A DNA stretch of 64,000 nt from Sporopachydermia quercuum. Taxonomy: Eukaryota. Where the stretch lies: NCBI GenBank assembly GCA_001599295.1, contig BCGN01000002.1, positions 310,001 through 374,000 of the forward strand. Direction: 5' to 3'. A program made the translations under genes and the position numbers. Under the pieces are notes generated by a model. The model was given only the letters and a program-made list of their open reading frames with translations, was not told the DNA's origin and did no database searches. Position 1 is the stretch's first letter. Each line of letters starts with the position of its first letter. Shown here piece after piece: positions 3,232-47,249 of the stretch.

Positions 3232-6200
3232 ATGGCATCTGGGAATATCAACAATGGGAACCATTATCAGGCCGCTGATCTGACGAATATTCCAGCATTG
3301 AGTGTTGAAAACTCAAGTGTTATCTCACAATTAGCCTCGGTTTATCACCATAGCAATCCAGTAGCTAAAATATCCAGCAAAGCTCTGGTGAGTATCAACA
3401 CCTTTGCAGGAGTGACCCAAGCACATACTGAGGCATTTAGCCAATTAGCTATCAATGCATATAAAAGATTATTGCAACAAGATGAAGACCAAGCAGTGTT
3501 ATTTCTGGGAGAATCAGGTACCGGGAAATCTCAGTATAAAACGGAGGTAGTCAATTTTTTGCTCTCGCAAGCTAATAATCCTATCTCGGGTAGAATATCT
3601 GACGCTTTAAATGTGTTCTCTGCCTTCACTACTACTAAAACTAATAACGGACTGTTCACATCGCGAGCGGGACAAGTGATTGAACTCCAGTATAGCCAGG
3701 ACTCAACACTAATTGGTGCTAATATTTCAGACTATCGTTTAGAAAGATCGCGAACTAGCAAAGTACCTATTGGAGAAAGAAACTATCATGTCTTTTACTA
3801 CTTATTTGCTGGTCTTTCTCCAACTGAGCGAACCCATTTATGTTTACCAGCTCCTTCAAGCCAGGAACGACTCTGGTATTTAGGCCATCCTTCACAATTG
3901 AATATTACAGGGATTGATGATGCAGAAAAGTTCTACGAGCTGCTGGGAAGCTTCCGGGTTTTGGGCTTTTCTAGAACAGACATAGCTAATATATGTCAAC
4001 TTCTAGCTGCCATTCTTCATATCGGTCAATTGACGTTCAGACCTACTGAGAATTCAGAAACAGGAGCTTTAAGCGAAGTTGTGTTCTATGACCGTTTAGA
4101 ACGTATCTCAAAGTTTTTGGGAGTTCGCACTGAATTGCTAGAAACAGCCTTGAGCTTCAAATCTACTATTGTTCACAGGGAAAGGATTACCAAAGTATTA
4201 GACGTTGATGGTGCCAAACAAAGTGCGGACGACTTGGCACGTTGTTTATATGCATTCCTATTTTCTTGGATTATGGAAAAAATCAATAATAGGATATCTC
4301 AGGATCATTCAACGGGGGATTTTTCTGATATCCACAATGTTTTCACTATTGTTGATTTTCCTGGTTTTACAACTTCGCATACTATCCCAGTGTTGGATAA
4401 GCTATTGCATAACTCTGCCAATGAATATTTTCATAACTTCATGCTTACTACATATTTCCAAGCGTCGGCAGAGTTGCTGGAAACTGAAGAAATCACTGTC
4501 CCGGAGAATGAATATTTTGATAACTCTGATACAGTTACCTCGCTATACAGACCCCAACTAGGACTACTATCAGTAATTGATGATTACTCTCGTCGGGGAA
4601 AAAGCGAGAATTCCTTCTTGGAATCCGTGCGAAGAAGATATGAGAAAAACGAGATTATTAGAGCTCCACATGATGGTTCACGTAATTTTATTATTACACA
4701 TTATGCTGGTGAAGTTGATTATAAAGTAACTAATCTGTTGAGCAATAATATGGAGGCCATATCAGGAGACTTTATTAATCTGTTCACGTCATCATCAACA
4801 TCGGATTTCCTACAAGTGATTTTTTCATCAAAGGCAGTTGTCAGTGATAGTGATGACCAACCGGACTCTGCAGTAAATTCTGGCAGTATTACAAGAATGA
4901 AAAGTGTTAAACTATCATCAAAACCAACTCGACAGCCAACATTGGTAAGGAAAAGTACAGTTAAGCGAAAAGAGAACTCCAATTCCAAAGTGGCCGAATC
5001 GGGTAAGGAAGCCATTACTAGTTCAAACTTAAATCTAAACTCTAATCTTACATTGGAATCAACTCGTTCAGACGCTTGTGTTCAGTTTGCAGAATGTATG
5101 GACGATTTGATCTCTTCTTTGAAGTCTTCGAACGTTTATTTTGCGTTTTGCATAAAGCCTAATGATAGGAAAATCCCCGGGCAGTTTGATGCTCGCTGTG
5201 TAAAACAGCAGGTGATGGCATTCCAGTTACCAGAGATAATAAAACGGGTTCAAACTGTCGATTTCGGTTTATTCTTACCTTTTAGCGAGTTCCTAAAGCT
5301 CGTAAATGAAAACTACGATCCAAACTCCGAGGGTTCACTTAATAATAGCACGGATAATATATCTGAACGGGAAAAAACTATAGCTTTAGTCAAATACCAC
5401 AACTGGTTAGATAGAGACATACGGGTAGGCACTACCGGAGTTGTGCTTTCAGAACCTTTATGGCAATTGATACTTGGATCCTCAAACGCTATTGATATAA
5501 CTAAAATAGCTTTGAAATCAGCTGCTGCCGATAACGACAATGATGCTGATGGTATCGGATATGCTGGTGAGCAAGCTTTTGGTTATGATCCTAACTCTTC
5601 TCTATTGAAGATTACTCCAGGAAGCGATAATGACAATTTGTTTAAATTCACTGACACTAAATCAATATATGGGCCTTCTCTAATGCATTTAAAACATGAC
5701 GATGCTGACCATACAGCACTGGCGGCTGCGGAGGCTGCTAATCAACAGGGCATTCAGACTGTCTCATTCCAGCGGAAATTCTGGCTGGCAATAGTGACAG
5801 CATTAACCTTCTTTATACCAGAAGTTCTTATGAAACATATTGGCAGAATGAAACGGAAAGATGTCCGTGTTGCCTGGAAAGAAAAGCTTGCGATTAACAT
5901 TCTCATATGGCTTTCCTGTGGCATCATGATCGTCTTCCTTATTTTCTTCCCAATCTTAGTATGCCCTAACCAAGATGTGTACTCGCAAGGTGAACTAGCC
6001 GGTTATAGCTTCGGTGCTAACCCCAAAAAGACATACCTAGCTATTCGTGGCACAGTGTTTGATATTACCAAATTTTCTGCTGCCCATTATCCTTCTATAG
6101 TGCCTCAGAGTAGTATTCAGAACTACGGTGGTTCAGACTCCTCCGACTTGTTCCCGATGCAAGTATCTGAATTGTGTCAAGGAACAACCGGAGAAGTCAG

Positions 6201-8727
6201 TAAGTACATTATCATGGGCACTAATACTAAATATCAAGATACCAACGCTCAATATCATGATTTCCGATATTTCACCGGTGACTATAGACCGAATTGGTAT
6301 TCCGATATGATGCTCCGGTTCAATCACAACTATAAAGTAGGCCACATTGGCTATACAGGCTCTGATATTGATGAAAAGCTTGTTGGGGATAATGGGAAAA
6401 TCGTAGCTGTCATCAATGGTAATATATATGATCTTACTATGTATATCAACAACGAATTCTCAACAAGAGCTCCCTCTGGCGAAAAAGTCCCCAATGACGT
6501 TGATCTACAGTTCATGGACTCTTCTCTGATTAGCCTGATACAGACAAATAACGGACAGGATATAACGAGTGCGTATAACAAGCTAAACATGGATTTAGAC
6601 CTGAGAGAAAGAATGAACGTTTGTTTGGACAATCTCTTCTTCATAGGCAAATTAGATACCAGAGACTCTGTCCGATGCCAATTTGCTAGGTATTTCCCTT
6701 TGGCTATATCCTGTTTTTTGGTAACAGTGATTGCATTCAAATTCTTTGCTGCTTTACAGTTCCATAAGGCCTCAGCACCAGAACAATCAGATAAGTTTTT
6801 CATTTGTCAAATCCCTGCTTATACAGAAGACGAGGGATCTCTCCGCAGAGCAATTGACTCTCTGGCATGCTGCAAATACGACGATAGAAGGAAACTACTG
6901 TTTATTGTATGTGACGGTATGATTATTGGTGCTGGAAATGAAAAATCAACGCCAAGAATTGTTTTGGATATTTTGGGAGCTCCTGAGGATGCAGAAATCC
7001 TTAGCGAGCCACTCAGTTTTGAAAGTTTAGGCGAAGGAAGCAAAAGGCATAATAGGGGTAAAATCATCTCCGGCTTATACCAAGTAAACGGCCATATTGT
7101 TCCTTATATTGTATTGATCAAAGTAGGTACCATTGATGAGATCAATAGACCTGGTAACAGAGGTAAAAGAGACTCACAAATGATACTTATGAGGTTCTTC
7201 AACAGAGTTCACTTTGAGCTACCTATGTGTCCTTTAGAGCTAGAGTTGTATCATCATATGCAAAATATCATTGGTGTGGACCCTCATTATTATGAATTTC
7301 TACTTCAAGTTGATGCTGACACTGCTATTGATAAATCAGCAGCAAGCAAAATGATTGCTGCTATGGTTTCCGATACTAAAATCATTGGGTTATGCGGTGA
7401 AACAGAATTGTACAATGCTAAACAAACAATCATTACTATGATTCAAGTGTACGAATATTATATTTCTCATAACTTCACCAAAGCTTTTGAATCATTGTTT
7501 GGTTCTGTCACTTGTTTACCTGGTTGTTTCACCATGTATCGTGTTTATGACGCCTTTGATAGAAAGCCTTTGTTTGTTGCCCATTCAATTATAAGAGCTT
7601 ATCAAGTCAATGAGGTAAACACCCTCCATATGAAAAACTTGCTTCATTTAGGTGAAGATAGATACCTCACAACTATCTTATTAAAACACTTCCCCAGGTT
7701 TAAAACAAAGTATTTACATGATGCTAAATGTAATACTATTGCTCCTGATAATTTCAAAGTTTTTTTATCCCAACGAAGACGATGGATTAATTCTACTGTG
7801 CATAATTTAGTTGAATTAACATCCATCAATCAGTTATGCGGTTTCTGTTGCTTTAGTATGAGATTCATCGTTATTTTGGATCTTGTAAGTACAATTATTC
7901 AACCTGTGATTATTGTTTATTTGGCTTACTTGATTTACCTGATCGCCAGTTCTGATAATGGTGTTCCTGTGACTTCTTTAATAATGATTGCAGCTGTTTA
8001 CGGCTTACAAGCACTGATATTCTTATTGAGAAAGAAATGGGATATGATAGCTTGGATGATCATATATATGATAGCAATACCTATATTTGCTGTCGCTTTA
8101 CCATTATATTCTTTCTGGAATATGGATGATTTCTCTTGGGGTAATACCAGAGTTGTTATGGGTGAGAAAGGCAAGAAAGTAATCCTTGGGTCTGTTGGTG
8201 TGTTTGATCCCGATGAAATTCCTTTATTGAGATGGAGAGAATATGAAAACGAAGGGCTTGGAGGAATAGGAGGAGAAGGAGGTGTGGGAAGAGATTTTGT
8301 TGCAAATGGTACAGGAACTAACACTTATGGACGCTCACCCTCTTTCACATCTCTATCGAATGTTATGGCAAGAAGATCGTTCTATGCTAACAATGATACA
8401 ACATACTCTCAAGGATCATTTTCTAGATCACCTTTCAGCGATTCCAACGCTATAGATAATAATAATTACGATCTCCAATCATTAACTGTTGCTGCCGCTG
8501 CTAGTGCTGTTGGGGGTGCCGGTACAGGGTTTACGCCAGATGTAGCCGCTATCAGTGANAGCGAGATTATACACGAATTGAAGGATATAATTGCTACCAA
8601 TGATTTAATGCAATTAACTAAAAGAAGTATTAGGACTGAGTTAGAAAAACGGTTTGGTGTTTCTTTACAGGCTCGAAAAGAGTTTATTCGATTTGCAGTT
8701 GAGGCTATTTTGAAAGGAGAACTATGA
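3232..8727 (+). CDS. Chitin synthase with N-terminal myosin motor-like domain (class V type), 1831 aa
   Basis: P-loop GESGTGKS and myosin motifs ERNYHVFYYL and DFPGF; cytochrome b5-like region (VFDITKF...HYP); division-2 chitin synthase core (GNRGKRDSQ, QVDADT, LHLGEDRYL, QRRRW, WNMDDFSWG); C-terminal DEK-C-like tail. Confidence 0.96.
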   Translation: MASGNINNGNHYQAADLTNIPALSVENSSVISQLASVYHHSNPVAKISSKALVSINTFAGVTQAHTEAFSQLAINAYKRLLQQDEDQAVLFLGESGTGKSQYKTEVVNFLLSQANNPISGRISDALNVFSAFTTTKTNNGLFTSRAGQVIELQYSQDSTLIGANISDYRLERSRTSKVPIGERNYHVFYYLFAGLSPTERTHLCLPAPSSQERLWYLGHPSQLNITGIDDAEKFYELLGSFRVLGFSRTDIANICQLLAAILHIGQLTFRPTENSETGALSEVVFYDRLERISKFLGVRTELLETALSFKSTIVHRERITKVLDVDGAKQSADDLARCLYAFLFSWIMEKINNRISQDHSTGDFSDIHNVFTIVDFPGFTTSHTIPVLDKLLHNSANEYFHNFMLTTYFQASAELLETEEITVPENEYFDNSDTVTSLYRPQLGLLSVIDDYSRRGKSENSFLESVRRRYEKNEIIRAPHDGSRNFIITHYAGEVDYKVTNLLSNNMEAISGDFINLFTSSSTSDFLQVIFSSKAVVSDSDDQPDSAVNSGSITRMKSVKLSSKPTRQPTLVRKSTVKRKENSNSKVAESGKEAITSSNLNLNSNLTLESTRSDACVQFAECMDDLISSLKSSNVYFAFCIKPNDRKIPGQFDARCVKQQVMAFQLPEIIKRVQTVDFGLFLPFSEFLKLVNENYDPNSEGSLNNSTDNISEREKTIALVKYHNWLDRDIRVGTTGVVLSEPLWQLILGSSNAIDITKIALKSAAADNDNDADGIGYAGEQAFGYDPNSSLLKITPGSDNDNLFKFTDTKSIYGPSLMHLKHDDADHTALAAAEAANQQGIQTVSFQRKFWLAIVTALTFFIPEVLMKHIGRMKRKDVRVAWKEKLAINILIWLSCGIMIVFLIFFPILVCPNQDVYSQGELAGYSFGANPKKTYLAIRGTVFDITKFSAAHYPSIVPQSSIQNYGGSDSSDLFPMQVSELCQGTTGEVSKYIIMGTNTKYQDTNAQYHDFRYFTGDYRPNWYSDMMLRFNHNYKVGHIGYTGSDIDEKLVGDNGKIVAVINGNIYDLTMYINNEFSTRAPSGEKVPNDVDLQFMDSSLISLIQTNNGQDITSAYNKLNMDLDLRERMNVCLDNLFFIGKLDTRDSVRCQFARYFPLAISCFLVTVIAFKFFAALQFHKASAPEQSDKFFICQIPAYTEDEGSLRRAIDSLACCKYDDRRKLLFIVCDGMIIGAGNEKSTPRIVLDILGAPEDAEILSEPLSFESLGEGSKRHNRGKIISGLYQVNGHIVPYIVLIKVGTIDEINRPGNRGKRDSQMILMRFFNRVHFELPMCPLELELYHHMQNIIGVDPHYYEFLLQVDADTAIDKSAASKMIAAMVSDTKIIGLCGETELYNAKQTIITMIQVYEYYISHNFTKAFESLFGSVTCLPGCFTMYRVYDAFDRKPLFVAHSIIRAYQVNEVNTLHMKNLLHLGEDRYLTTILLKHFPRFKTKYLHDAKCNTIAPDNFKVFLSQRRRWINSTVHNLVELTSINQLCGFCCFSMRFIVILDLVSTIIQPVIIVYLAYLIYLIASSDNGVPVTSLIMIAAVYGLQALIFLLRKKWDMIAWMIIYMIAIPIFAVALPLYSFWNMDDFSWGNTRVVMGEKGKKVILGSVGVFDPDEIPLLRWREYENEGLGGIGGEGGVGRDFVANGTGTNTYGRSPSFTSLSNVMARRSFYANNDTTYSQGSFSRSPFSDSNAIDNNNYDLQSLTVAAAASAVGGAGTGFTPDVAAISXSEIIHELKDIIATNDLMQLTKRSIRTELEKRFGVSLQARKEFIRFAVEAILKGEL

Positions 8728-26236: not shown

Positions 26237-28522
26237 ATGAACTACATACCGAGCAACTTCCCAGCAACAGATAGCGGGGATAATCAAGATCGGAAACGAT
26301 CCCGTGAAGATCCTGTGTCTTCCGCCGGTTCCGAATTATTGCGGCCACCTAATAAAATAACCATTCGGCTGAAACCGGATCCTGATTCGTCTTTTCCAAA
26401 CAGTCCAAACGGGATAGCTGGTCTACCGGTTAATCAAGTCAAACAGGGAAATCAGGTGAACCAAGTCAATCGGATATCTGGCGGAACAGTTAACGCGGCA
26501 ACTCACGTCAATAAAGAGAACCAAGTTAATTTGAGCTCCGCAAATGGTTCCGTAATTGGAACAGGATCTGGATCTGGATTTGAATCTGGCTCTAGTCTTA
26601 ATCATGGCGTACCATTACCAAACAGAATTAATTCAAATGAGAGAAAATCTTTATCTGGAAACGCAATAAACTCTGTTTCAAACTCAAGTCCTAATCCCGT
26701 CCTAAAAGCATCTGTCGGAGCTCAAAGAATACCCAAATTTTGCACCTCCGACGAAGACTTCTTCCTCAAATATGCAAATGCCCCTCCCTCTTTAGAGTTC
26801 CACATATATGAAAAACACTACCGGTTCGGCCGCCAAGAAGGGATAATACCCCGCAGTAATCCGATGATCAATCAGTTTCTAGAATATGTTGCGCGGGAGG
26901 AGATTCCGCCGTATATTTCCGAGATTCTTCGGGATTCTGGAATTCGGTATTATGAGGGGTGTTTATTNCTGCATTTGTACGATCATCGGAATACAAATGC
27001 CGGGTCTGAAAATGGGAATGGGCAGAAGCCAGGCAACCTTAATTCAGTTAACTCGGTTAACTCGATTAATGCTCCCAGTGCATCTATGAGCTCTGCTAAC
27101 AACTCCGTTAGCTCGGCTCAATCACCTAATCATGTAGTCAAATCGGCTAAAATGTTCAAAGTCATCCTTCATCCTACCGAATTGGAACAATGGTACGACA
27201 TAATTTCGCTTAGCGACCCTCTTCAGCACAGATTTACCGATGATTTTGCAACCTTTATAACGGCACAAATCACTAATATCACCAAAGTTAAGGTTAATAC
27301 GATTGTACCTTTGAATCCCTATACGGCAAGTACTTATATTCCATTACCCAAACAGGATACCGGACCTAGAAATAGTTCTAATCTTAAACCGGCTCCGAAA
27401 CCTAAGCCTAATACCAACCCTCATTCTCATGCCCATCGGCCCGAATGTCAAGTGAAACGGATAAGAGCCCTCCATGAAGATTTACCCCACAATTCCTCGG
27501 AATACGAAGATTTGATGCTTCTATTAGACGACTCGGCAAACGAACGCTCGGATCAATTGGTTCGGATAAGCTTTATTGAGCAATGGCGACGAAGACGAGA
27601 GAAAATGACGCAAATAGCGTTAGCGCATCAGATGAGCCGAACGCAAGCTGCACGAAAGAAACTTGGCGGGGCTGCAGCGTCATCCTCGGGTTCCGGATCT
27701 GAAATTATGCCTGATCAGCACACTCAAATACAATTGCAACAGCAGATGATGCAACAAGCTCGGCAGAACTTCTCGTTATCAATAAACTCGGTAGCAGCTG
27801 CGGTGGGTGGAAGCAGAAGCGGGGTGGGCGGGGTGAGTGGAAATGATAATAGTGGAGTAAATGGAAAAAGCGGGAGAGTTAACAGTACAAGTGGTAGCAA
27901 TAGCGGAAGCAATAATAATAATAATCTCAACTCAACCGGAATTGGAAACTCGGGCACGGCAAACCTCTCCGAATCGGGTGATATGACCGGGACAAGATCT
28001 CCTAGTATTGCCGGAAATGGCAACATGGCCGGTGGAATGGGGGCAGATTTATCGGAAAAGGAAAAGGAAACAGTGAAGGGTAAAGCTAAAAAGACAGTTA
28101 AGCGAGGGAAAAAAGCTGCTACAGGACCCACTGCTGCGGGTAAAGATGGAACTTTATCTGAAACCGTCGGGGCCGGAACTGCAGCTAAAACGAAACGGAA
28201 GACTAAAAAGCAGAAAGAAGCCGAAATTCGGAATAACTCGGGTAAAACTGTTGCAGGAAAGACTATTCCGGGTAAGACCGTTCCCGGGAAATCGTTACCA
28301 GGGAAGACAGTACCCAGGAAAACAATTCCTGGTGGGGTAAGCGGAGCTGGTATAGCAAAGGCTAAAAAGCCGAAGAAAGAGACAAAGAAACAACGGGAAG
28401 CTCGGTTGAAGAGCGAAGCCGAAGCCGCGGCTAATTTACGTAATGCGCAAGGAGGAATAAGTGGGGTGGCAGGGGTCAATACTCAATTCGGAATGCTAGA
28501 CGGAAGACTGAATGAGATATAA
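26237..28522 (+). CDS. SPT20: SAGA complex subunit Spt20-like protein
   Basis: Spt20 domain motifs LKYANAPPSLEFHIYEKHYRF, IPPYISEILRDSGIRYYEGCL, ILHPT, LHEDLPHNSSEYEDLMLLL; low-complexity flanks; first ATG at 26237. Confidence 0.85.
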   Translation: MNYIPSNFPATDSGDNQDRKRSREDPVSSAGSELLRPPNKITIRLKPDPDSSFPNSPNGIAGLPVNQVKQGNQVNQVNRISGGTVNAATHVNKENQVNLSSANGSVIGTGSGSGFESGSSLNHGVPLPNRINSNERKSLSGNAINSVSNSSPNPVLKASVGAQRIPKFCTSDEDFFLKYANAPPSLEFHIYEKHYRFGRQEGIIPRSNPMINQFLEYVAREEIPPYISEILRDSGIRYYEGCLXLHLYDHRNTNAGSENGNGQKPGNLNSVNSVNSINAPSASMSSANNSVSSAQSPNHVVKSAKMFKVILHPTELEQWYDIISLSDPLQHRFTDDFATFITAQITNITKVKVNTIVPLNPYTASTYIPLPKQDTGPRNSSNLKPAPKPKPNTNPHSHAHRPECQVKRIRALHEDLPHNSSEYEDLMLLLDDSANERSDQLVRISFIEQWRRRREKMTQIALAHQMSRTQAARKKLGGAAASSSGSGSEIMPDQHTQIQLQQQMMQQARQNFSLSINSVAAAVGGSRSGVGGVSGNDNSGVNGKSGRVNSTSGSNSGSNNNNNLNSTGIGNSGTANLSESGDMTGTRSPSIAGNGNMAGGMGADLSEKEKETVKGKAKKTVKRGKKAATGPTAAGKDGTLSETVGAGTAAKTKRKTKKQKEAEIRNNSGKTVAGKTIPGKTVPGKSLPGKTVPRKTIPGGVSGAGIAKAKKPKKETKKQREARLKSEAEAAANLRNAQGGISGVAGVNTQFGMLDGRLNEI
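28241..28330 (+). repeat. Coding 15-bp tandem repeat, six copies of GK(T/S)(V/I/L)(P/A), in the Spt20 tail
   Basis: GKTVA GKTIP GKTVP GKSLP GKTVP RKTIP. Confidence 0.85.
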
Positions 28523-29524
28523 AATGGGGGATAGCATAATAAAATTTGAACCTAGAACCTATTTGGTTAATGTTTTGTATCTTCAACTTTAACTGGATAA
28601 TAATAAGATGTACCGGTTTGGAAAACTGGAATCAACTCAAGTACACGAGAATACAGATTCAGAGAATAATACATCCAAACTTCACATACGAATTTTCCAT
28701 TTGGAAGTATCGGAACACCGGAAAACTTCTCTTTCCGATCCAAGATTCTTACCGCCTTTCTCTGGTGTGGGAAAAGATGGTTTTCACTACTGGAAATGTC
28801 ACCAATACATGCATAATGCTATCGCCACAACCATTGTCAAATACACGATGCTAGACATAACAAGCTCCTTCCGACTATCCTGTAGATTAAATTAAACATA
28901 CGTCATAATCACATCAACAATGAATAATAAGATCAATGATATACTATTTTCATTACTTAATGATAAGAGATGTTGCTCAATTTGTTACTTCTCCAGATCA
29001 TTAAATGTACTCATCAATTCTCCGTTCGGAGCCACAGTCAAATCCTCTACTGCATATGCATATCATCAATGTTTACTACTGCTAGAGGAGCTCTTGTTAC
29101 GTTAACAGCCATTGGTTATTGATCTTGAAAACCCCATCATGGGATTCGATCAGATAATAGTGTTTGGCAGGGTGGTTATTTTGGGAGGAGGGTTAGATTA
29201 CTTATTGGGCCATTCATTGGATCAAGATTATTCAATTTAAAGTATAAGACCAGCTTACGTCAATTTAAGGTGAGACATGAGTTGTCTTTACAGAAATTCA
29301 AGAGTCATCGAGTAAACCCGTCATCACAGTCATTTTCCAACACAGTGATTGATTATTATGGGGAGAGATTTTACTCTCTCAAGCAATACAAGCAGTGGTT
29401 GAGAGACTGTAATGCGTATAGAAGAAAAACCAAGGAGTTTTTCTGAACTTCGAGCATGAGCGTGAAAGGAGTGGGTACCTTTGTAAATATATAAAGGAAT
29501 AAAATTAGCTGAACGAACGCGAAG

Positions 29525-29995
29525 CATAATTTCGTTAGGTGGTCAGGAACTGTTCTAGGAGCATATACAAACACTTCCACTCGTTTAACTGTTATGCCCT
29601 GAAGATCCAAGAGAGAATCAAAAGATTGGAATTGAACAAGAACATCTTCGACATAGGTAACTACATGGAAGCAAAATTCAAGACTTATTTGTTACCCCAC
29701 AATCAAATCACCGCGGATGTTAGAGGTATTAGAGGATTCTGGTCCAGTGAGTTTACTGAATCCAAGGAAACGTTAGCCCCTTTTGATCCTAAGATCAAGG
29801 TTGCTTTGAGAGTTCAGAAAAAGTGTGCTGTCAAAGGGTTGACGCTTATGGCTGATAGCTGATGTACGGGAGAAAAGGTGATCACATCTTATTGGCACCG
29901 TCGTTCATCATTACCAAAGAAGATGTGGATAAGCCATTGCCACCAAGACCATTGATCAGATTACTGGAGATTTAATTGCTGAGGGTCTTTTATGA
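29525..29995 (+). pseudogene. 3' fragment of a class-III PLP-dependent aminotransferase, frameshifted
   Basis: Across several frames: SGTVLGAYT / HSFNCYALKIQERIK...NIFDIGNYM...ADVRGIRGFWSSEF...TLAPFDP...KGLTLM / GRKGDHILLAPSFIITKEDVD / IATKTIDQ...*; no recognisable 5' part. Confidence 0.75.
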
Positions 29996-31308
29996 TAAAT
30001 GTTATTTACATGAAATTAACGTTATACTAATGGTCTTATTACCTAGGGTTTGTATTGAATAAACTCCCTGTTATATTTGCCAAGTGTTACTGTCTCCTGA
30101 GTTTCTTCTCCTGAGTTTTTTCCTTTTGGTCAGCCAGCACTTCCGTTCGGTTACACGCACGGTTTGGAATGGAAAACCAACAATAAAGCATCTCTCAATT
30201 CGTCTTCATTTAACATTTGTTGTAATTCTTCTGTGGTTTCAGCAATTCTATCTCTATCGTTAGAATCGATCATGAAATCAATGCACTGAGTGTTTGGCAG
30301 TAGTACCTCCATAAAGATCTAATTTTATCTTGTCTACCGACACCCAAACAGTGAAGGAGATCTTGTAAATTTTCTTTTTTATGATTTGTTTATACGATAA
30401 TTTTTAATGCAAAAGAAAAAAAAAAAAGAAAAAAAACAGAAAAGCACACAGAAAGCGATCCAACTAATGTTCCATCAATTCGCTTGTATAAAATTTTGTT
30501 ACTTAAACCAACCATAATTCTTGATTACAATCAATCGATTGTAACGTCAAAATCGATTAGTGAATCAACAAGAAGAAGAAAATTACCAAATGAGTGTTGT
30601 TATTTTACCAGTGACCAAAATAATTGTTTCAGAAAATCCGAATTTGGCTTGGTCATGATTTTGGTTAGTTTTTGCTCCAGGGAAACGAAGCTATGTATAC
30701 GATTTCTGCGACGCCACATAGCGACAAGAATAGGGGAGAGAATTATATGAAATAAGAGCAAAATATGGAGACAAAAGGGAAATAGAGAGAAAGGAAACGA
30801 GATAAAGAAATTAGAGAAGTAGAGACTAAAAAGGTTGATTGTCAGTAAGCCTGGATAGGGATAGTAATTAAGTTGTATTGTTGGGAGTTTGAAATAAGTA
30901 GTTTCAGGTGTACTTAGAATGAAGAAGTGTATGAACTGATTGACAAGTGAATGATTATATAATTGTTAGAATTATTGTAGGAGTGCCTAGAATGTTTTAG
31001 TAAGTGCTTAAAACGAGTATATAATAAATGAGTATAATTGTTACAATCCTGCAGCATCGTTTGTTAAGGTAATACTTTGCGCATTCCATATGAAGACCCT
31101 TCAATGGTCGATATTGCCGATGAGTTAGACATTTATATCCATGGAATTACATTACGTGCAATTAAGCTATATGTAATTGGGTTGTATGAACGTTACTTAT
31201 AGGGACTCCGCCGCTTAATTGTGGGAACCTGGAACAGCCCTAAAAAAAATAAGGAAGCACGATCAGCAGCAGCAAACCAGACGAGTAGTAGGAAAATAAG
31301 CTACTGTA

Positions 31309-31372
31309 ATTTAGATGCGAAGGTTTTCTTCGATCTTGGCGCCAAGATCGAAGAAAACCTTCGCGTCTAAAT
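31309..31372. repeat. 64-nt loopless palindrome (32-bp arms, one mismatch; central 48 nt perfect)
   Basis: atttagatgcgaaggttttcttcgatcttggc|gccaagatcgaagaaaaccttcgcgtctaaat, centre at 31340/31341. Confidence 0.97.
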
Positions 31373-31388
31373 ATGGACCTAATTACAG

Positions 31389-31396
31389 TATATAAG
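31389..31396 (+). promoter_or_regulatory. Probable TATA box of the downstream surface-protein gene
   Basis: TATATAAG 100 nt upstream of ATG 31489, followed by a CT-rich leader. Confidence 0.55.
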
Positions 31397-31488
31397 CACA
31401 GTGCGAGAAGCTCCCGTGGAACTTTCTCATACTTTCTCGTTCTCTCATGCCTGTCTCTTATAGTCATTCTCATTCTCTAATTTTCAAG

Positions 31489-32364
31489 ATGAAGCACCTT
31501 ATTTTCCTACTACTCGTCTGGTTTGCTGCTGCTGCTGCTGCTGCTGCTGATTATGCTCCGTACAGAGGTCCGAAAGTATGGTCAGGAGCATCGTGTACTA
31601 CTGATGCAAGTGTGTTCCAAACGCTCAAAGTACATTATTATGACACAGGTGGCGACGCAGACGTGGGAAACATCATGAGCGAGGACCACCCTGTGGGTAA
31701 TACCATTCTCAAGCAGGTCAAATCTTGGGGTGGTTTCAATGGTAGGTGTGGTCAATTCATAGGGTGGTCTGACATCGAAGACCAGGAAGGGTATAGATGG
31801 TTTGTGCATATTCGACAGGGATATCAGTACCTCGATTCTTTCGATGACCCTGACGAACAGTGCTACTTTGACAACTACTTCTGCGACAACCTTGGTGCGC
31901 TGCAAGTGTTCGGTGTCATCCGAGAATACAACATAGTGGGTGCTTGTGTGCAATTGCACATCAACCACCAGACCACCAATTTCTTCTTTGCTAGAAAAGA
32001 TGCTTATGAGGATGCCAAAAATGATCTTTACATTCGTACTGAAAACTGGGATTTAACTAGAGCCAGTGGGTATGACTGTCGGAATGCTATTGCTTTAGCC
32101 GGAGTGCCTCTCGTTAACTTACCCAGTGAAAACGGCGGTGTCCAGCCCTTCACCGTCAATCTCGGGGACTCCCCATCGCTGACAGATGGATCGGGTATTC
32201 CCTCCATATCAGATTCTCTCTCTACCAGCTACATAGATGAAGCTAGTGAATCTACCACCAGTTACATAGATGAAGCTAGTGAATCTACCACCAGTTATAT
32301 AGATGAAGCTAGTGAATCTACCACCAGTTACATAGATGAAGCTAGTGAATCTACCACCAGTTAA
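31489..32364 (+). CDS. Orphan secreted/cell-surface protein: signal peptide, Cys-containing domain, Ser/Thr repeat stalk. Truncated by TAA; the frame continues to a GPI-type tail ending at 32565
   Basis: MKHLIFLLLVWFAAAAAAAD signal; 6 Cys in the domain; YIDEASESTTS repeats; after TAA 32362-32364 the frame reads on to SGNEAGELVSLSKWLQLFACIMSLVI*. Confidence 0.85.
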   Translation: MKHLIFLLLVWFAAAAAAAADYAPYRGPKVWSGASCTTDASVFQTLKVHYYDTGGDADVGNIMSEDHPVGNTILKQVKSWGGFNGRCGQFIGWSDIEDQEGYRWFVHIRQGYQYLDSFDDPDEQCYFDNYFCDNLGALQVFGVIREYNIVGACVQLHINHQTTNFFFARKDAYEDAKNDLYIRTENWDLTRASGYDCRNAIALAGVPLVNLPSENGGVQPFTVNLGDSPSLTDGSGIPSISDSLSTSYIDEASESTTSYIDEASESTTSYIDEASESTTSYIDEASESTTS

Positions 32365-32481
32365 ATAGATGAAGCTAGTGAATCTACCACCAGTTACATA
32401 GATGAAGCTAGTGAATCTACCACCAGTTACATAGATGAAGCTAGTGAATCTACCACCAGTTACATATATGAAGCTACTGAA
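32230..32481 (+). repeat. 33-bp coding minisatellite, 7 full copies plus a partial eighth
   Basis: Unit tacatagatgaagctagtgaatctaccaccagt; copy 3 starts TAT, copy 5 starts TAA. Confidence 0.97.
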
Positions 32482-34235
32482 CCTAGCGGTAATGAAGCTG
32501 GTGAACTTGTTTCCTTATCCAAGTGGTTACAGCTTTTTGCTTGTATAATGAGCTTGGTAATCTAAGATAAGCTGGCTGCAAAAAAAAAAAAAAAATTAAA
32601 GGGAGATTTCTCACTATTGCTCTATAACCCTCTATGCTTATTTGATCCTATCCTTTTCAGCATTATTATTCGCACTACTGCTAGAATAAGCGTGTGGCAA
32701 GACCACTACTTTCGGTTTGAGTAGAATGTAAGCTTGAATCGGCTGAGCTGGTACAGGTTGAACTGAACTGAGTTGTTTCGAAGGTATGAACTGTTGAGCA
32801 AGGAATTCAGCTTGAGGGATAATTAGGNTTTTGAGTCTTCGTGGAATAGCTGGTTTGCAGTTTAGTAGCAACCATACTACTGTGGTTCCTACCCGCCTGC
32901 CCACCAGAAGACTCAAATCCAAACTTCGTAGGTTAGAGCAGAGCTGTTAGAACAGTGATATAGGTGGTAAGAAGAGCCGGTTTGTCACCGGTAAACGGTC
33001 ATCTAAGCTGAAGATCCAATTTGCTATTGGTATGAATGAAATGAACATATATTATATTCCATTCGGTATTGATGAAAATTTCAGTGAAAGCAGCAATTCT
33101 ATTTCAAGTAATCTTTTTTTTTTTTGAATAAATCTATGAGCATAAAAATTAATAAGAGATGGTGTATGATGTAAAACAGTTCATGGGAGAGCATTCGTCA
33201 AAAGTTCCAATATGGTGCTTTCTTTGCGGAGAGATCTAAGTGAACTGATACTTCAAATACAGCTTGTTTGTATTTCACTAGATTTTTCAGTCACCATTGT
33301 ACTAAAATGGGATAATCTGAAGAATAACTAACTGTAAACAACTTCTTTTTGGTTTAGCGTCCTCTGGTAGTTGAAACTGCAAGAACTGAAGGAGTACAGT
33401 TACCCCCATTACTCAAATGATCGGGTCCACAATATACCTCCCAAGTGTATAGTATCTTTGTTTTTGTTATCGGCTCAACTACATCGAGCCAGAATTTAGG
33501 CTGCGAAAATGGTTCCCAAACAAAAATTATACCGAATAGAGGTGGTATAACTGCAGGGATCACAGCTTCAGAAAGTATAGATCACCCCAAAAATATTAAG
33601 GAAAAGCATGGTAATCAATTGCTAGCAAAGAAATCTATAATAACCAGTACCAGGATAATAGTTAGAACAGTTGTGAAGTTTAAAACTTGGTGAGAATTGC
33701 AAGATAACCTTGTAACTGCCAGCTTGTTCTCTCGGACAAGTTTTGGCATGTGAAACAACAATCGAGTATATACCCCTTTAGTTTTGCTGATTCATCCTTT
33801 ACTGAACATTCACTAATGCTTGAAAACGATAGACTCTGTTCAAGACTTTGTATGCTGTACGCAGGTGATCAGAATTCTTACTGTACTCACCTTATTATCT
33901 TTTTGATAGCTTTATAACATAAAACTTCTGCATGAAAAAAAGATCACCAATAAACCAGCTAAAATAAAGGACCCTCTCTCATTCGAAAGCTACCTTCCAC
34001 CTTATATCCTTTCTTCATTTCTATGTTGCCGATTTCCGACCACAACAGCAGTTCAAAAGTGTTCATGTACCCTCAATTTACATGAATCTTATCTAGCATA
34101 ACATTTTCCTACTCCATTCGGTGAAACGCTCACAAAAATATATAAATAAATCCCAATCATACCTTGTAGATATACATTAAGTACCGTCGAACACATTCTT
34201 TCTTAGTTTACTATATTTAATCAACATTCACTCTG

Positions 34236-34565
34236 TCGGACATACAAGATTGTCCCGATATATTAGATTTATCCTCAAAATGTCAGGATAAACGAGATAG
34301 CCGGGGAAAACCTCTCATCAATAATCTAATTTGATTACAATGAAGATAATCAACAGTATAAATAGAATCAGATAATCCTCTTAAAGCTCTATACTTCCAC
34401 TATATAACTGCGTGTAACATGAATAAAAAATGATTATCATCTTTATAATTATATTATTATACTAATGAGGGGAAAAATCCCCTCATCTTGTTGAAAATCA
34501 TTCATCCTGACATTTGTTAGGGATGAATTGTCAGGTTCTATATTGGGACAGTATCATATGTCCGA
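34236..34565. mobile_element. Degenerate MITE-like/foldback element with ~120-135 bp imperfect inverted arms
   Basis: Nested complementary blocks: tcggacata/tatgtccga, tgtcccgatata/tatattgggaca, aaatgtcaggat/atcctgacattt, ctcat/atgag, gataatca/tgattatc; ~78-nt spacer; non-coding. Confidence 0.6.
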
Positions 34566-36088
34566 TACATTTAAAGGATGTCTGAGTCATGTATTACATC
34601 ATTTCCGTAATTCAGAGATAGATGGGAAACTATACCATCAATCTCAACTTCATCTTCGTAAGCATCAACATAGATGCTTACGAAAAATATTCACGAAAGA
34701 GAAGAAATAACAGCTCAGCAAGCGAAGAACGAAAAAGATTGATCGTTCAGATTACTTGAGTAATTGGTTTTTCGGTACAAATACATCATATGGTTATTGA
34801 ACTGAATTCTGAGGACCAAAATAGAACAGAACCTTTTAATCATCAAAATTACAACAAAAGGCAATTATAGTATATGTCAGTGGTTAAACGGCAGAAGGTT
34901 GCCAAATCTGATGGTAATGGATGAACTGCATTAACGATCAGTGTAAGTATTAGTTTCTTTTTGGAGAAGTGAATTGATATATTTTCGCCGAATCTCACAT
35001 TATGTATGAACAAGAGTTGTACACTCTGGCTTTCCTCGTATCTAAGCCAAGGCTTTGCGATAAATTTACATCAGGGCATTTCGGCATCTAGCAAGCATGT
35101 AGAGCCCTATTTCGGAAACTAGCAACTATAATAAAAGGCTGTCACTCCTATTCCACTTTTCCTGACTTTTCCTGATTTATTCCCCGTTTCTTTTGTATTA
35201 TACTCTATGAATGTTTAGTTTCAATAAATAATTACTCTGGTTCTGCTTACTTGGGTTGACGTAGGCAATAAATTGATACATAACCTACTTTATTATATTC
35301 ATTGCATAATTGAATGAGTTGGATTAACTATTATGTATCGGACAGGCAGCTGATGTTACTATTGGAACTTGGGTTACTATTTCACTATCTTAGCGCAGGT
35401 ATGAGATAATACTTTTCACTACATAGAGGTAGGTTAGCTGTTTGGTTCGTTTCATATCTGTGAAATATCTTCATAAACAATCATTTCTAACTCCTGTTGT
35501 ACGTCAGATAGTCAGTGTACTTGGATGATTCGATATACAACAAAGTAAAAACAAAGCAAATCATCTAGTACGTTAAATGTTTCGATATTTCGGCTGTCTT
35601 TCTTATGTTGAAATAAATGATTGCTTCCTCTTGTGCCCTGTTTAACACTTGAAACGTTGATTGGTTGGTTGTTGATTTGCTAGTTCAACCGACTAATTGA
35701 GTAGTTATTATTGGATTTTGTATCACATAGCTTTCTGGGAGTAATAGTACTATGGGTTCTTCTGATCAGTTTGTATGTAAATGAGCTCATAAAGTGCATG
35801 TCTAGTGCTTGTCGTTGAACAATTCAGTAAACAGTTATCAACCGGTTAAGTTCTAGTTGGCTAATGGACTTTAGGTCTGATTGAAAGTCCTTGGCAGTTG
35901 TGATTAAACTTCCACAATTCAATTATTCTCTGGCTTCTGTCGGTTTGATCAATTTGCTTAGTTCTGTTTAGTCGATTCCCTTGGTTCCGTTGTTCCTCGT
36001 TTACATCTAATTTCTGTTTACTATGACTTTCATATCATTCATGCTGCTTCTAACGATCGTTTCTATATCCATAAATCATAATCTTTTC

Positions 36089-36769
36089 CTAGGCATTATC
36101 TTTATCCTTTTTCAGTTCACTCGGAAGTAATAAATCAGGTGGATCATTTACTATCAAATACTCCAAAAGCTCTCGCACAGGCTCTCTATCCTTTTCATCA
36201 AACAACCAGAGCCCATATGTCTTACCAGCAACACTTTTCACCAGTAATATCTCATCGCTCAAACTAACCTCCATAGTATTCAAGCCATTGGCTTCTGTAA
36301 CTGTGTTAGGACTCACTCCTAAACAAAAATTTTCTGGTGATAGTCTATTGAACACTATTATACCGTAGGCATATGGATCTTTGTATGGAGAGAACTTCAG
36401 TTGCTCTTCTTCGATTTCTTTTTGCCTTTTTTCTTCTTTTTCTTCGTCTTCATCAGCGTATACGCTGAATACGTCTTCATCATATCCGCCAATATTTGAT
36501 GGTACCGATAGTTGGAAATAACGTGAATATACTATCATCACACCTTGTGGTTGAAGTTTTTTCCACTCATCTGCTGATTCGTTGAACTCGTAAAGAACGC
36601 AATGAGACGCGGTGTAATATATCTCTTTCAGTTTAGGGTCATACCTGTGGAGAACACGATAGTTTAATGCTTGTCGATATACTTCGAATACTTGATCTTG
36701 CGATAGTTGAGGTTGAGGCTGCTGTGCTTCAGGTACTGTTTCCGTTGTGTCTTGTATCGAAGGTGCCAT
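36089..36769 (-). CDS. DCP1: mRNA decapping subunit Dcp1 (EVH1 fold), 226 aa
   Basis: ALNYRVLHRYDP...TASHCVLYEF...EWKK...YGIIVFNRLSPENF...YGLWLF. Confidence 0.93.
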   Translation of the reverse strand: MAPSIQDTTETVPEAQQPQPQLSQDQVFEVYRQALNYRVLHRYDPKLKEIYYTASHCVLYEFNESADEWKKLQPQGVMIVYSRYFQLSVPSNIGGYDEDVFSVYADEDEEKEEKRQKEIEEEQLKFSPYKDPYAYGIIVFNRLSPENFCLGVSPNTVTEANGLNTMEVSLSDEILLVKSVAGKTYGLWLFDEKDREPVRELLEYLIVNDPPDLLLPSELKKDKDNA

Positions 36770-46751: not shown

Positions 46752-47249
46752 ATGTTTTATTTTCCCATAGTTCTTATCTCTGCTTTCCTTTTGGGGTCAG
46801 CGTTTGCTGAGGCATCAGAACCTGCGGTTCTTACTGACACCCAGTCTTTTGCTGCTGCTGGAACTGTGTCTGTTCTATCATTGCTGACTGCGTTGAATAC
46901 TGTCCCAACTGCTTTGAGTAGTAATGACAATACTGATGAAACTAATAACGAAATACAGACATCGGAATCAAGCCCTCTATTAGAAAGTGCAAACAGCGTG
47001 ATAACTCTTCATGGTTTAGAAGGGCCATTTATCACATCAAGCCAACCTATAAACAGTACTAATATCACTGTTACTTCATATCAAGAAACTGGTACCACAT
47101 TGGAAACGTTGGTGTCTTCTACATCGTCAACTGGTTTTAGTCAGACGGTGAACAATGCAACAACTCATGAGGGAGGAGCTGCAAGCTCTAAAGACAGATC
47201 TACGGGAGCTTATATGTTATGTTTTGGGTTGATGGCATTCTTGATATAA
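46752..47249 (+). CDS. Small Ser/Thr-rich putative GPI-anchored cell-wall protein, 165 aa
   Basis: Signal peptide MFYFPIVLISAFLLGSAFA; S/T-rich body; C-terminal GGA...AYMLCFGLMAFLI. Confidence 0.75.
   Translation: MFYFPIVLISAFLLGSAFAEASEPAVLTDTQSFAAAGTVSVLSLLTALNTVPTALSSNDNTDETNNEIQTSESSPLLESANSVITLHGLEGPFITSSQPINSTNITVTSYQETGTTLETLVSSTSSTGFSQTVNNATTHEGGAASSKDRSTGAYMLCFGLMAFLI

Follow-up and report, generated by a model that had tools for sequence, protein, structure and literature searches.

An assembled stop codon in one unit of a tandem array separates a yeast cell-wall protein gene from its GPI-type anchor signal, in a form that repeat contraction could revert

A gene of Sporopachydermia quercuum whose layout is that of a fungal GPI cell-wall protein carries, in the assembled genome, a stop codon within one unit of a tandem array, upstream of what appears to be its own anchor signal. 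Is this stop part of an evolved switch between released and wall-bound forms of the protein, as the original prediction proposed, or is it an accident of mutation or of assembly? The locus lies in the window analyzed here, a stretch of 64,000 nucleotides (C2:310001-374000) from an assembly of 16.4 Mb in 15 contigs, and positions below refer to that window unless a contig is named. The layout of the gene, the homology of its tail to that of an intact relative and its single-copy status were established directly. The explanation that we favor, at a rough probability of 0.55, is that a single-copy GPI cell-wall gene recently acquired the stop by accident; the product of this nonsense allele would be unanchored, and ordinary repeat contraction could revert it.

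The reading frame runs for 291 codons from 31489 to the TAA and then for 66 codons to a stop at 32563-32565, with no further lesion across the 291 codons. The start codon is followed by a predicted signal peptide of 20 aa (31489-31548, plus strand), judged by eye from its basic N-region, hydrophobic core and Ala8, and its N terminus aligns with that of the relative described below; an upstream in-frame ATG also occurs at 31447. The alanine run of the signal peptide is encoded by a GCT tract of 8.7 copies (31524-31549, plus strand). Next come a Cys-containing extracellular domain of about 214 aa (31549-32190, plus strand), assigned by sequence comparison to no described family, and a stalk of eight 33-bp units (32224-32487, plus strand), each encoding 11 Ser/Thr/Glu-rich residues; the Ser/Thr-rich stalk expected of fungal GPI cell-wall proteins is thus present. 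By its layout, this is a GPI cell-wall protein gene. The original prediction had spoken of the layout of a GPI adhesin, of which the cell-wall part is supported; a Pfam search at E 0.1 returned no family, and hence none of the known adhesin domains (Flo, Als, Epa/PA14, Iff/Hyr, Flo11), and an adhesive role for the protein would be a guess from its layout. The domain had no sequence match in the PDB and no usable hit in the Atlas. Structure models reached a pLDDT of 32 from the single sequence and of 42 (pTM 0.48) from an alignment of five rows. A Foldseek search with this low-confidence model gave no match at E 0.001, and the best VIA Z score was 4.1; these fold searches are uninformative and provide no evidence of a new fold.

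The array (32224-32487) has a period of 33 bp, 7.9 copies and 96% matches. Seven near-identical units had been counted originally, and a repeat search recovered these seven as full units together with a degenerate eighth that the count had missed. Units 2, 4, 6 and 7 are identical, unit 1 has a silent change at 32229, and the in-frame TAA of unit 5 (32362-32364, plus strand; codon 292 of 358) falls at the unit position where unit 3 reads TAT, a silent change. The stop is, as first described, restricted to unit 5 of the assembled array. All seven genome matches to the repeat unit fall within the array, and the presence of only about three variant bases in seven units argues that the array is young. 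It was also proposed that loss of copy 5 could restore the anchor in frame, and this holds, since 12 of the 21 contiguous interior unit deletions eliminate the stop. The two interior variants share one unit position, an event expected about 1 time in 33 by chance, which could signal a mix-up during assembly. The variant bases are spaced 69, 66 and 103 bp apart, a largest gap that becomes 169 bp without the stop A; reads of about 105 bases would have been able to thread the assembled array only if that A is real. The stop lies at 81% of the reading frame, a region in which nonsense decay in yeast is weaker.

Downstream of the stop, the 66 open codons (32365-32565 with the terminal stop, plus strand) end, as predicted, in a small-residue site and a hydrophobic tail, and translation and homology identify the last 24 (32491-32562) as a GPI-type signal. 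With Asn as the omega residue, 24 residues from the end, it conforms to the pattern for fungal GPI proteins printed in the accessible part of PMC5555451 (omega, omega+1, omega+2, spacer and 10 hydrophobic residues); the GPI signal foreseen for the repaired frame is therefore intact by published consensus, and the truncated product has no match to it. Only 1 of 65 ORFs of at least 200 aa in 264 kb, namely this gene, has a GPI-matching segment past its stop. When the last 26 residues of the tail and of the relative's C terminus are compared, in windows chosen once the likeness had been noticed, the BLOSUM62 local score is 44, a value attained by 1 of 20,000 full shuffles and by 8 of 20,000 shuffles that preserve the layout by keeping polar and hydrophobic parts apart. 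The natural stop codons of both genes also align at the DNA level. On this homology, the segment beyond the TAA is the ancestral anchor signal of the gene. Because the tail is homologous to the C terminus of an intact relative, the stop is derived and the ancestral gene was anchored.

That relative is the only one found. A phmmer search of 1.84 billion representatives gave two hits, of which the real one (E 9e-32) is CIC11C00000000011 of Sungouiella (Candida) intermedia (UniRef100_A0A1L0BWJ3, a four-member cluster); the other, a butterfly repeat protein (E 1e-4 over 31 residues), was dismissed as chance. A word-based search with residues 20-245 yielded none among 325 candidates, a profile search recovered CIC11C00000000011 alone among 8000, and a metagenome scan reduced 132 pattern matches to one locus (L013), which holds the same gene. 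The protein, originally described as an orphan, is hence not a strict one, as one homologous cluster exists in S. intermedia. When the truncated protein and 10 further proteins of the window were looked up exactly, none was present in the protein collection, so this genome is poorly represented there and sampling may account for part of the family's rarity. CIC11C00000000011 resembles the S. quercuum protein in its predicted signal peptide, N-terminal domain, Ser/Thr stalk and C-terminal hydrophobic signal, with 38 to 43% identity in the domain (38% over 229 columns) and four invariant Cys residues. It differs in being intact (342 aa), with a non-repetitive stalk in place of an array, no upstream inverted repeat and a CUG-Ser host, and it fails the strict GPI consensus itself by one residue (Glu). 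A genome search with it aligned residues 4-338, straight over the single TAA. The L013 locus contains no tandem array, no stop and no upstream inverted repeat or palindrome; a single, distant relative provides a weak test of whether a switch design is conserved. In L013 (1-7368), which starts at a contig end, the homolog stands isolated, with no other ORF of more than 104 aa in 7.4 kb. Look-alikes of CIC11C00000000011 in the Atlas are fungal wall proteins with scores below 0.9 and serve as leads only.

The neighbors of the gene are ordinary yeast genes. A Pfam scan of 14 ORFs in the window identified SPT20, DCP1, CTR9 and a myosin-motor chitin synthase, and neighboring genes end normally in TAA. 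The wall-protein gene is the sole gene in a gap of 7.5 kb between SPT20 and DCP1, flanked on either side by decayed dispersed repeats and away from contig ends, and genome searches with both the gene and the relative's protein show it to be single copy. Its GC3 is 0.47, compared with 0.26 to 0.43 in 11 neighbors. Patchy distribution and GC3 together offer only a suggestion of horizontal transfer, and two taxa are too few for a tree. Sungouiella intermedia reads CTG as Ser. CTR9 offers 12 CTG codons within its aligned part; in a comparison by eye with the best structure hit only, the columns opposite them had six Leu, two Ile, two Lys, one Gln, one gap and no Ser, from which it follows that the host is not a CUG-Ser yeast; it appears to decode CTG as Leu. 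No tRNA was found within the window and no Rfam match within 28500-36100, and a scan for bacterial promoters, irrelevant to a yeast locus, was empty. There are 62 runs of N in 264 kb of the assembly, of which 61 are single bases, as would fit a collapsed diploid. They are patchy (41 in C2:400001-500000, 12 in C2:200001-300000 and 9 in the window), as patchy heterozygosity would give.

Several other features of the window were recorded alongside. The chitin synthase (3232-8727, plus strand) combines a myosin motor with cytochrome b5 and DEK_C domains, a class that to our knowledge is missing from S. cerevisiae and C. albicans. An ORF of 165 aa (46752-47249, plus strand) that starts like a signal peptide and has no match in Pfam may encode a small secreted orphan. 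A decayed palindromic dispersed repeat at 34233-34573, with arms about 70% alike, has matches of 70 to 86%, on either strand, at no fewer than six further genomic places; it is possibly the relic of a foldback element and is unlike the palindrome at the promoter described below. The segments 34582-35009 and 33947-34099 match C2:906865-907639 at 79% and 68%, respectively, with order kept, and by these matches represent an old duplicated non-coding stretch. Finally, 30173-30364 has a 76% match to C3:985264-985457, a locus without a tRNA.

Does the assembled array reflect the DNA in the cell? The locus was recovered as simplified contigs from three public runs (X1, X2 and X3) of two studies, and the array flanks are identical to the contigs of both studies, with no differing letter, where one of the two may have supplied the reads of the assembly itself. 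In all three runs, the array collapses to a 39-bp and a 54-bp record, none with the TAA or the TAT of unit 3; single-base variants in such a cycle are bubbles that assemblers drop, which makes the absence of the TAA from the contigs uninformative. Read depth is more telling. From the assembled array one would expect the two records at 5.44x and 4.00x single-copy depth, compared with 3.40x and 2.40x found in X1 and 4.16x and 2.91x in X2, and in X3 the depth is 2.2-3.1x against a predicted 4.39x. Nearby two-copy repeats sum properly (in X1, 38.1 for the core of the promoter palindrome against 20.5 + 20.6). Depth loss caused by a hairpin in the array was ruled out, the array folding no better than shuffled sequence (z, -0.03). 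We compared 15 genotype models with Poisson reads, assumed read lengths of 100 or 150, local depth free by 10 to 25% and dropped bubbles taken to add no depth, a treatment that can furnish a hint only. The worst of them is an array of eight units in which the stop was miscalled (delta lnL, -27 to -35), and the assembled array in homozygous form is also disfavored (delta lnL, -5.5 to -10). The best models are tied: the assembled allele with a second allele of four or five units, two six-unit alleles, or a homozygous array of six units in which a single unit is a variant, be it TAT or TAA. The homozygous six-unit array with the TAT variant only, at a delta lnL of -0.1, is on par with the two-allele models. 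The original call to look for heterogeneity in copy number or allele is thus answered in part, in that depth fits a second, shorter allele and fits a uniform six-unit array equally. Depth hints at arrays of several lengths or at an array shorter than assembled, and the assembly is not the full picture of the array state; depth is blind to the identity of the stop-bearing allele.

The gene start holds a second structural peculiarity, which could bear on a switch of another kind. The 37 bp of signal-peptide codons at 31498-31534 (right arm, plus strand, defined by arm alignment) recur as a perfect inverted copy at 31264-31300 (left arm, minus strand, marked by contig breaks in three runs), from which decayed similarity runs on outward to about 31256. 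The 197 bp between the arms include a spacer-less palindrome of 64 bp with one mismatch found by repeat search (31309-31372, centered on 31340/31341, perfect core 31317-31364), a TATA-box-like TATATAAG (31389-31396, plus strand) that is present in the right arm only and to which a promoter function is attributed from sequence, and the ATG. Within the window, no local inverted repeats are stronger than the 37-bp pair and the palindrome, and these two are the only perfect pairs with arms of at least 20 bp within 1 kb in the 264 kb examined. Contigs of all three runs end at the positions that the repeats predict (records of 76, 193 and 755 bp), which places the inverted repeats in the DNA of both studies, and the depth of the palindrome core record is doubled in X1 and X3. 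Moving outward from the center at 31340/31341, the left arm repeats the right arm except for two deletions, one of 11 bp and one of about 115 bp, the latter taking out the TATA box, leader and ATG. The best reading is a single foldback duplication, about 90 bp long and since decayed, which is probably the scar left when DNA broke a short way upstream of the gene and received a foldback (templated inverted) insertion, with internal deletions. The available part of PMC11724301 describes foldback inversions at breaks in yeast, with sizes of 2 to ~150 bp. The S. quercuum case shares with these insertions a spacer-less palindrome with a nearby inverted copy, short shared junctions and a total below 150 bp; it differs in being natural and partly decayed, in copying adjacent coding sequence and in bracketing a TATA box and ATG. 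The inverted copy of the GCT tract has only about three repeats; growth of the tract, or its skipping during copying, would account for this.

Other origins and roles for these repeats were considered. In a genome repeat search that skips very common words, 31240-31560 matched only itself, and the palindrome arm had one hit elsewhere, with three mismatches; this speaks against a dispersed foldback or MITE element, which would have multiple genomic copies. The left arm also resembles the GPI-signal codons (82% over 22 nt), a likeness put down to chance, as the colinear N-terminal match explains these bases. Modeled as RNA, 31240-31560 would form a very stable hairpin (z, -15.2), provided that a transcript starts upstream of the TATA box. 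Silencing of the gene by hairpin RNA was rejected, because the sole genomic match to Argonaute (Piwi) is broken by four in-frame stops (two TGA and two TAG). This match (L017 1486-3879, minus strand; C4, about 1039000-1041500) extends over about 830 codons with no frameshift, and the reading frames of two RNase III genes (Dicer/Rnt1 type) are uninterrupted. From these sequences, RNAi looks to have been lost recently in the host. The geometry of an invertible promoter, inverted repeats around promoter and start, is present. If the 197-bp spacer were flipped, no in-frame ATG would precede the ORF, the next Met would be codon 63, and the moved start would open 38 codons only, leftwards; the contigs are based on 31-mers, shorter than the 37-bp arms, and spacer orientation is invisible to them. 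No dedicated recombinase was found among the 14 window ORFs scanned. In the part of PMC13100816 available, growing promoter inverted repeats are described as able to alter expression, and PMC8604942, in its accessible text, describes spacer inversion by template switching in yeast as reversible, 2-5 bp in size and favored by short spacers.

How, then, might the stop have arisen, and what would it do? Most likely, an accidental nonsense mutation recently hit a single unit of the young array in a GPI gene of patchy phylogenetic distribution. The stop allele would yield a precursor of 291 aa that enters the secretory path without a GPI anchor and may be released or loosely bound to the wall. Anchor-less Flo11 is reported in the available part of PMC8617999 as secreted and also still at the surface, from which it follows that release of the truncated protein is not certain. 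Slippage or unequal recombination could then delete the stop, and because it sits in a near-perfect in-frame array, anchored alleles could reappear, or could coexist already as a second, shorter allele. In this genome, the four in-frame stops of the Piwi gene likewise suggest that nonsense alleles accumulate. On the best reading, the stop is a reversible lesion and not an evolved switch; the original caveat, that a recent nonsense mutation or a consensus error would look the same, has become the more likely account.

The strongest contender to an accidental allele, though we regard it as unlikely, is that the assembly is wrong: the true array would be shorter (about six units) and free of the stop, or two alleles were spliced, and the gene is intact. 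Depths of 2.4x and 2.9x where 4.0x is predicted point this way, as do the place of a six-unit, stop-free model among the best fits and the frequent misassembly of adhesin arrays, in which premature stops were fixed by Sanger sequencing (PMC6499006, in its accessible part). Such an error, however, demands an expansion plus an invented base, none of the 15 models fits worse than a correct array with a miscalled stop, and the flanks are identical to contigs of two studies. Distinctly less probable is a fixed truncation, in which the gene is a young pseudogene or encodes a secreted-only protein and reversion is irrelevant. A dispensable-looking single-copy gene in a 7.5-kb gap among decayed dispersed repeats, with a repair scar at its promoter and a second nonsense-broken gene in the genome, would suit this account, but the tail is still open and GPI-like, marking the stop as very recent, and depth disfavors the homozygous assembled array, though a homozygous six-unit stop allele does fit. 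Readthrough, which would give a small anchored fraction from unchanged DNA, is the least credible of all the readings. TAA is the tightest stop and CARYYA the leaky context; here the TAA is followed by A-T-A, CARYYA is absent, and the neighboring genes end normally in TAA.

There remains the recombination-driven switch of the original prediction, extended to the promoter: a selected contingency locus in which the array toggles between released and anchored forms and the 197-bp flip between on and off. Geometry permits both toggles (12 of 21 deletions drop the stop; the flip loses the start), the inverted pairs are the only perfect ones of their arm length in 264 kb, depth hints at mixed alleles, and template switching can reversibly invert spacers in yeast (PMC8604942, accessible text). 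We nonetheless consider selection for such a switch very unlikely. Loop-out is one-way, a lost stop being regained only from another allele, and the design is absent from the relative, which has neither array, stop nor inverted repeat; these two points weaken the case most. Moreover, the spacer inversions given in the available text of PMC8604942 are of 2-5 bp, not 197 bp, and a left arm colinear with the right arm minus two deletions is the pattern of a foldback scar. With one relative lacking array and stop, and with accidental truncation and restoration of yeast surface genes documented, a selected switch is unsupported. Slimmer still are the odds of a broader scheme of two enzyme-free DNA switches, a palindrome-stimulated flip of the 197-bp promoter and start combined with stop-bearing and stop-free alleles, in a gene whose domain possibly moved between distant yeasts.

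Known systems offer parallels for an accidental, revertible break. Like Flo11, Flo1, Als and Epa/Awp, the S. quercuum protein has an A-B-C layout with Ser/Thr repeats, which in those proteins vary in number, and a GPI signal; unlike them, it has no Pfam adhesin domain, only 88 aa of repeats and a single copy. Loss of the C terminus can release a fungal wall protein, according to the available part of PMC8617999. In C. glabrata, a 299-bp deletion in the repeat region of B1J91_E00110g1/g2 restored a single adhesin CDS between sequential isolates (PMC5555451, Table 8, as far as accessible), and the stop of S. cerevisiae BSC1-PRM7 (IMI1) is missing in another strain (10.1101/2020.01.09.900480, in part); disabled ORFs in yeast provide comparable reversible breakage (PMC1657058, in part). 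These cases share with ours a surface-type gene cut in one strain and continuous in another, the changes falling in repetitive DNA, except that ours is a point nonsense in one in-frame unit, involves no frameshift and is known from the stop allele alone. The promoter resembles fimS-type and Bacteroides capsule promoters in geometry only, with short inverted repeats around the promoter of a surface gene. Those invertible promoters need a site-specific recombinase, an enzyme that one would not anticipate at the yeast locus. A literature search by title and start of abstract, outside which most subscription journals lie, found no programmed anchored/released or invertible-promoter switch in yeast.

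Under the most likely reading, this locus shows in a natural genome how surface genes with internal repeats break and are able to mend. It also presents a clean natural foldback scar at a promoter and a surface domain of no known fold, seen in two species. Should one culture contain both array states and both spacer orientations, the locus would control a fungal surface protein in an enzyme-free manner that resembles phase variation.
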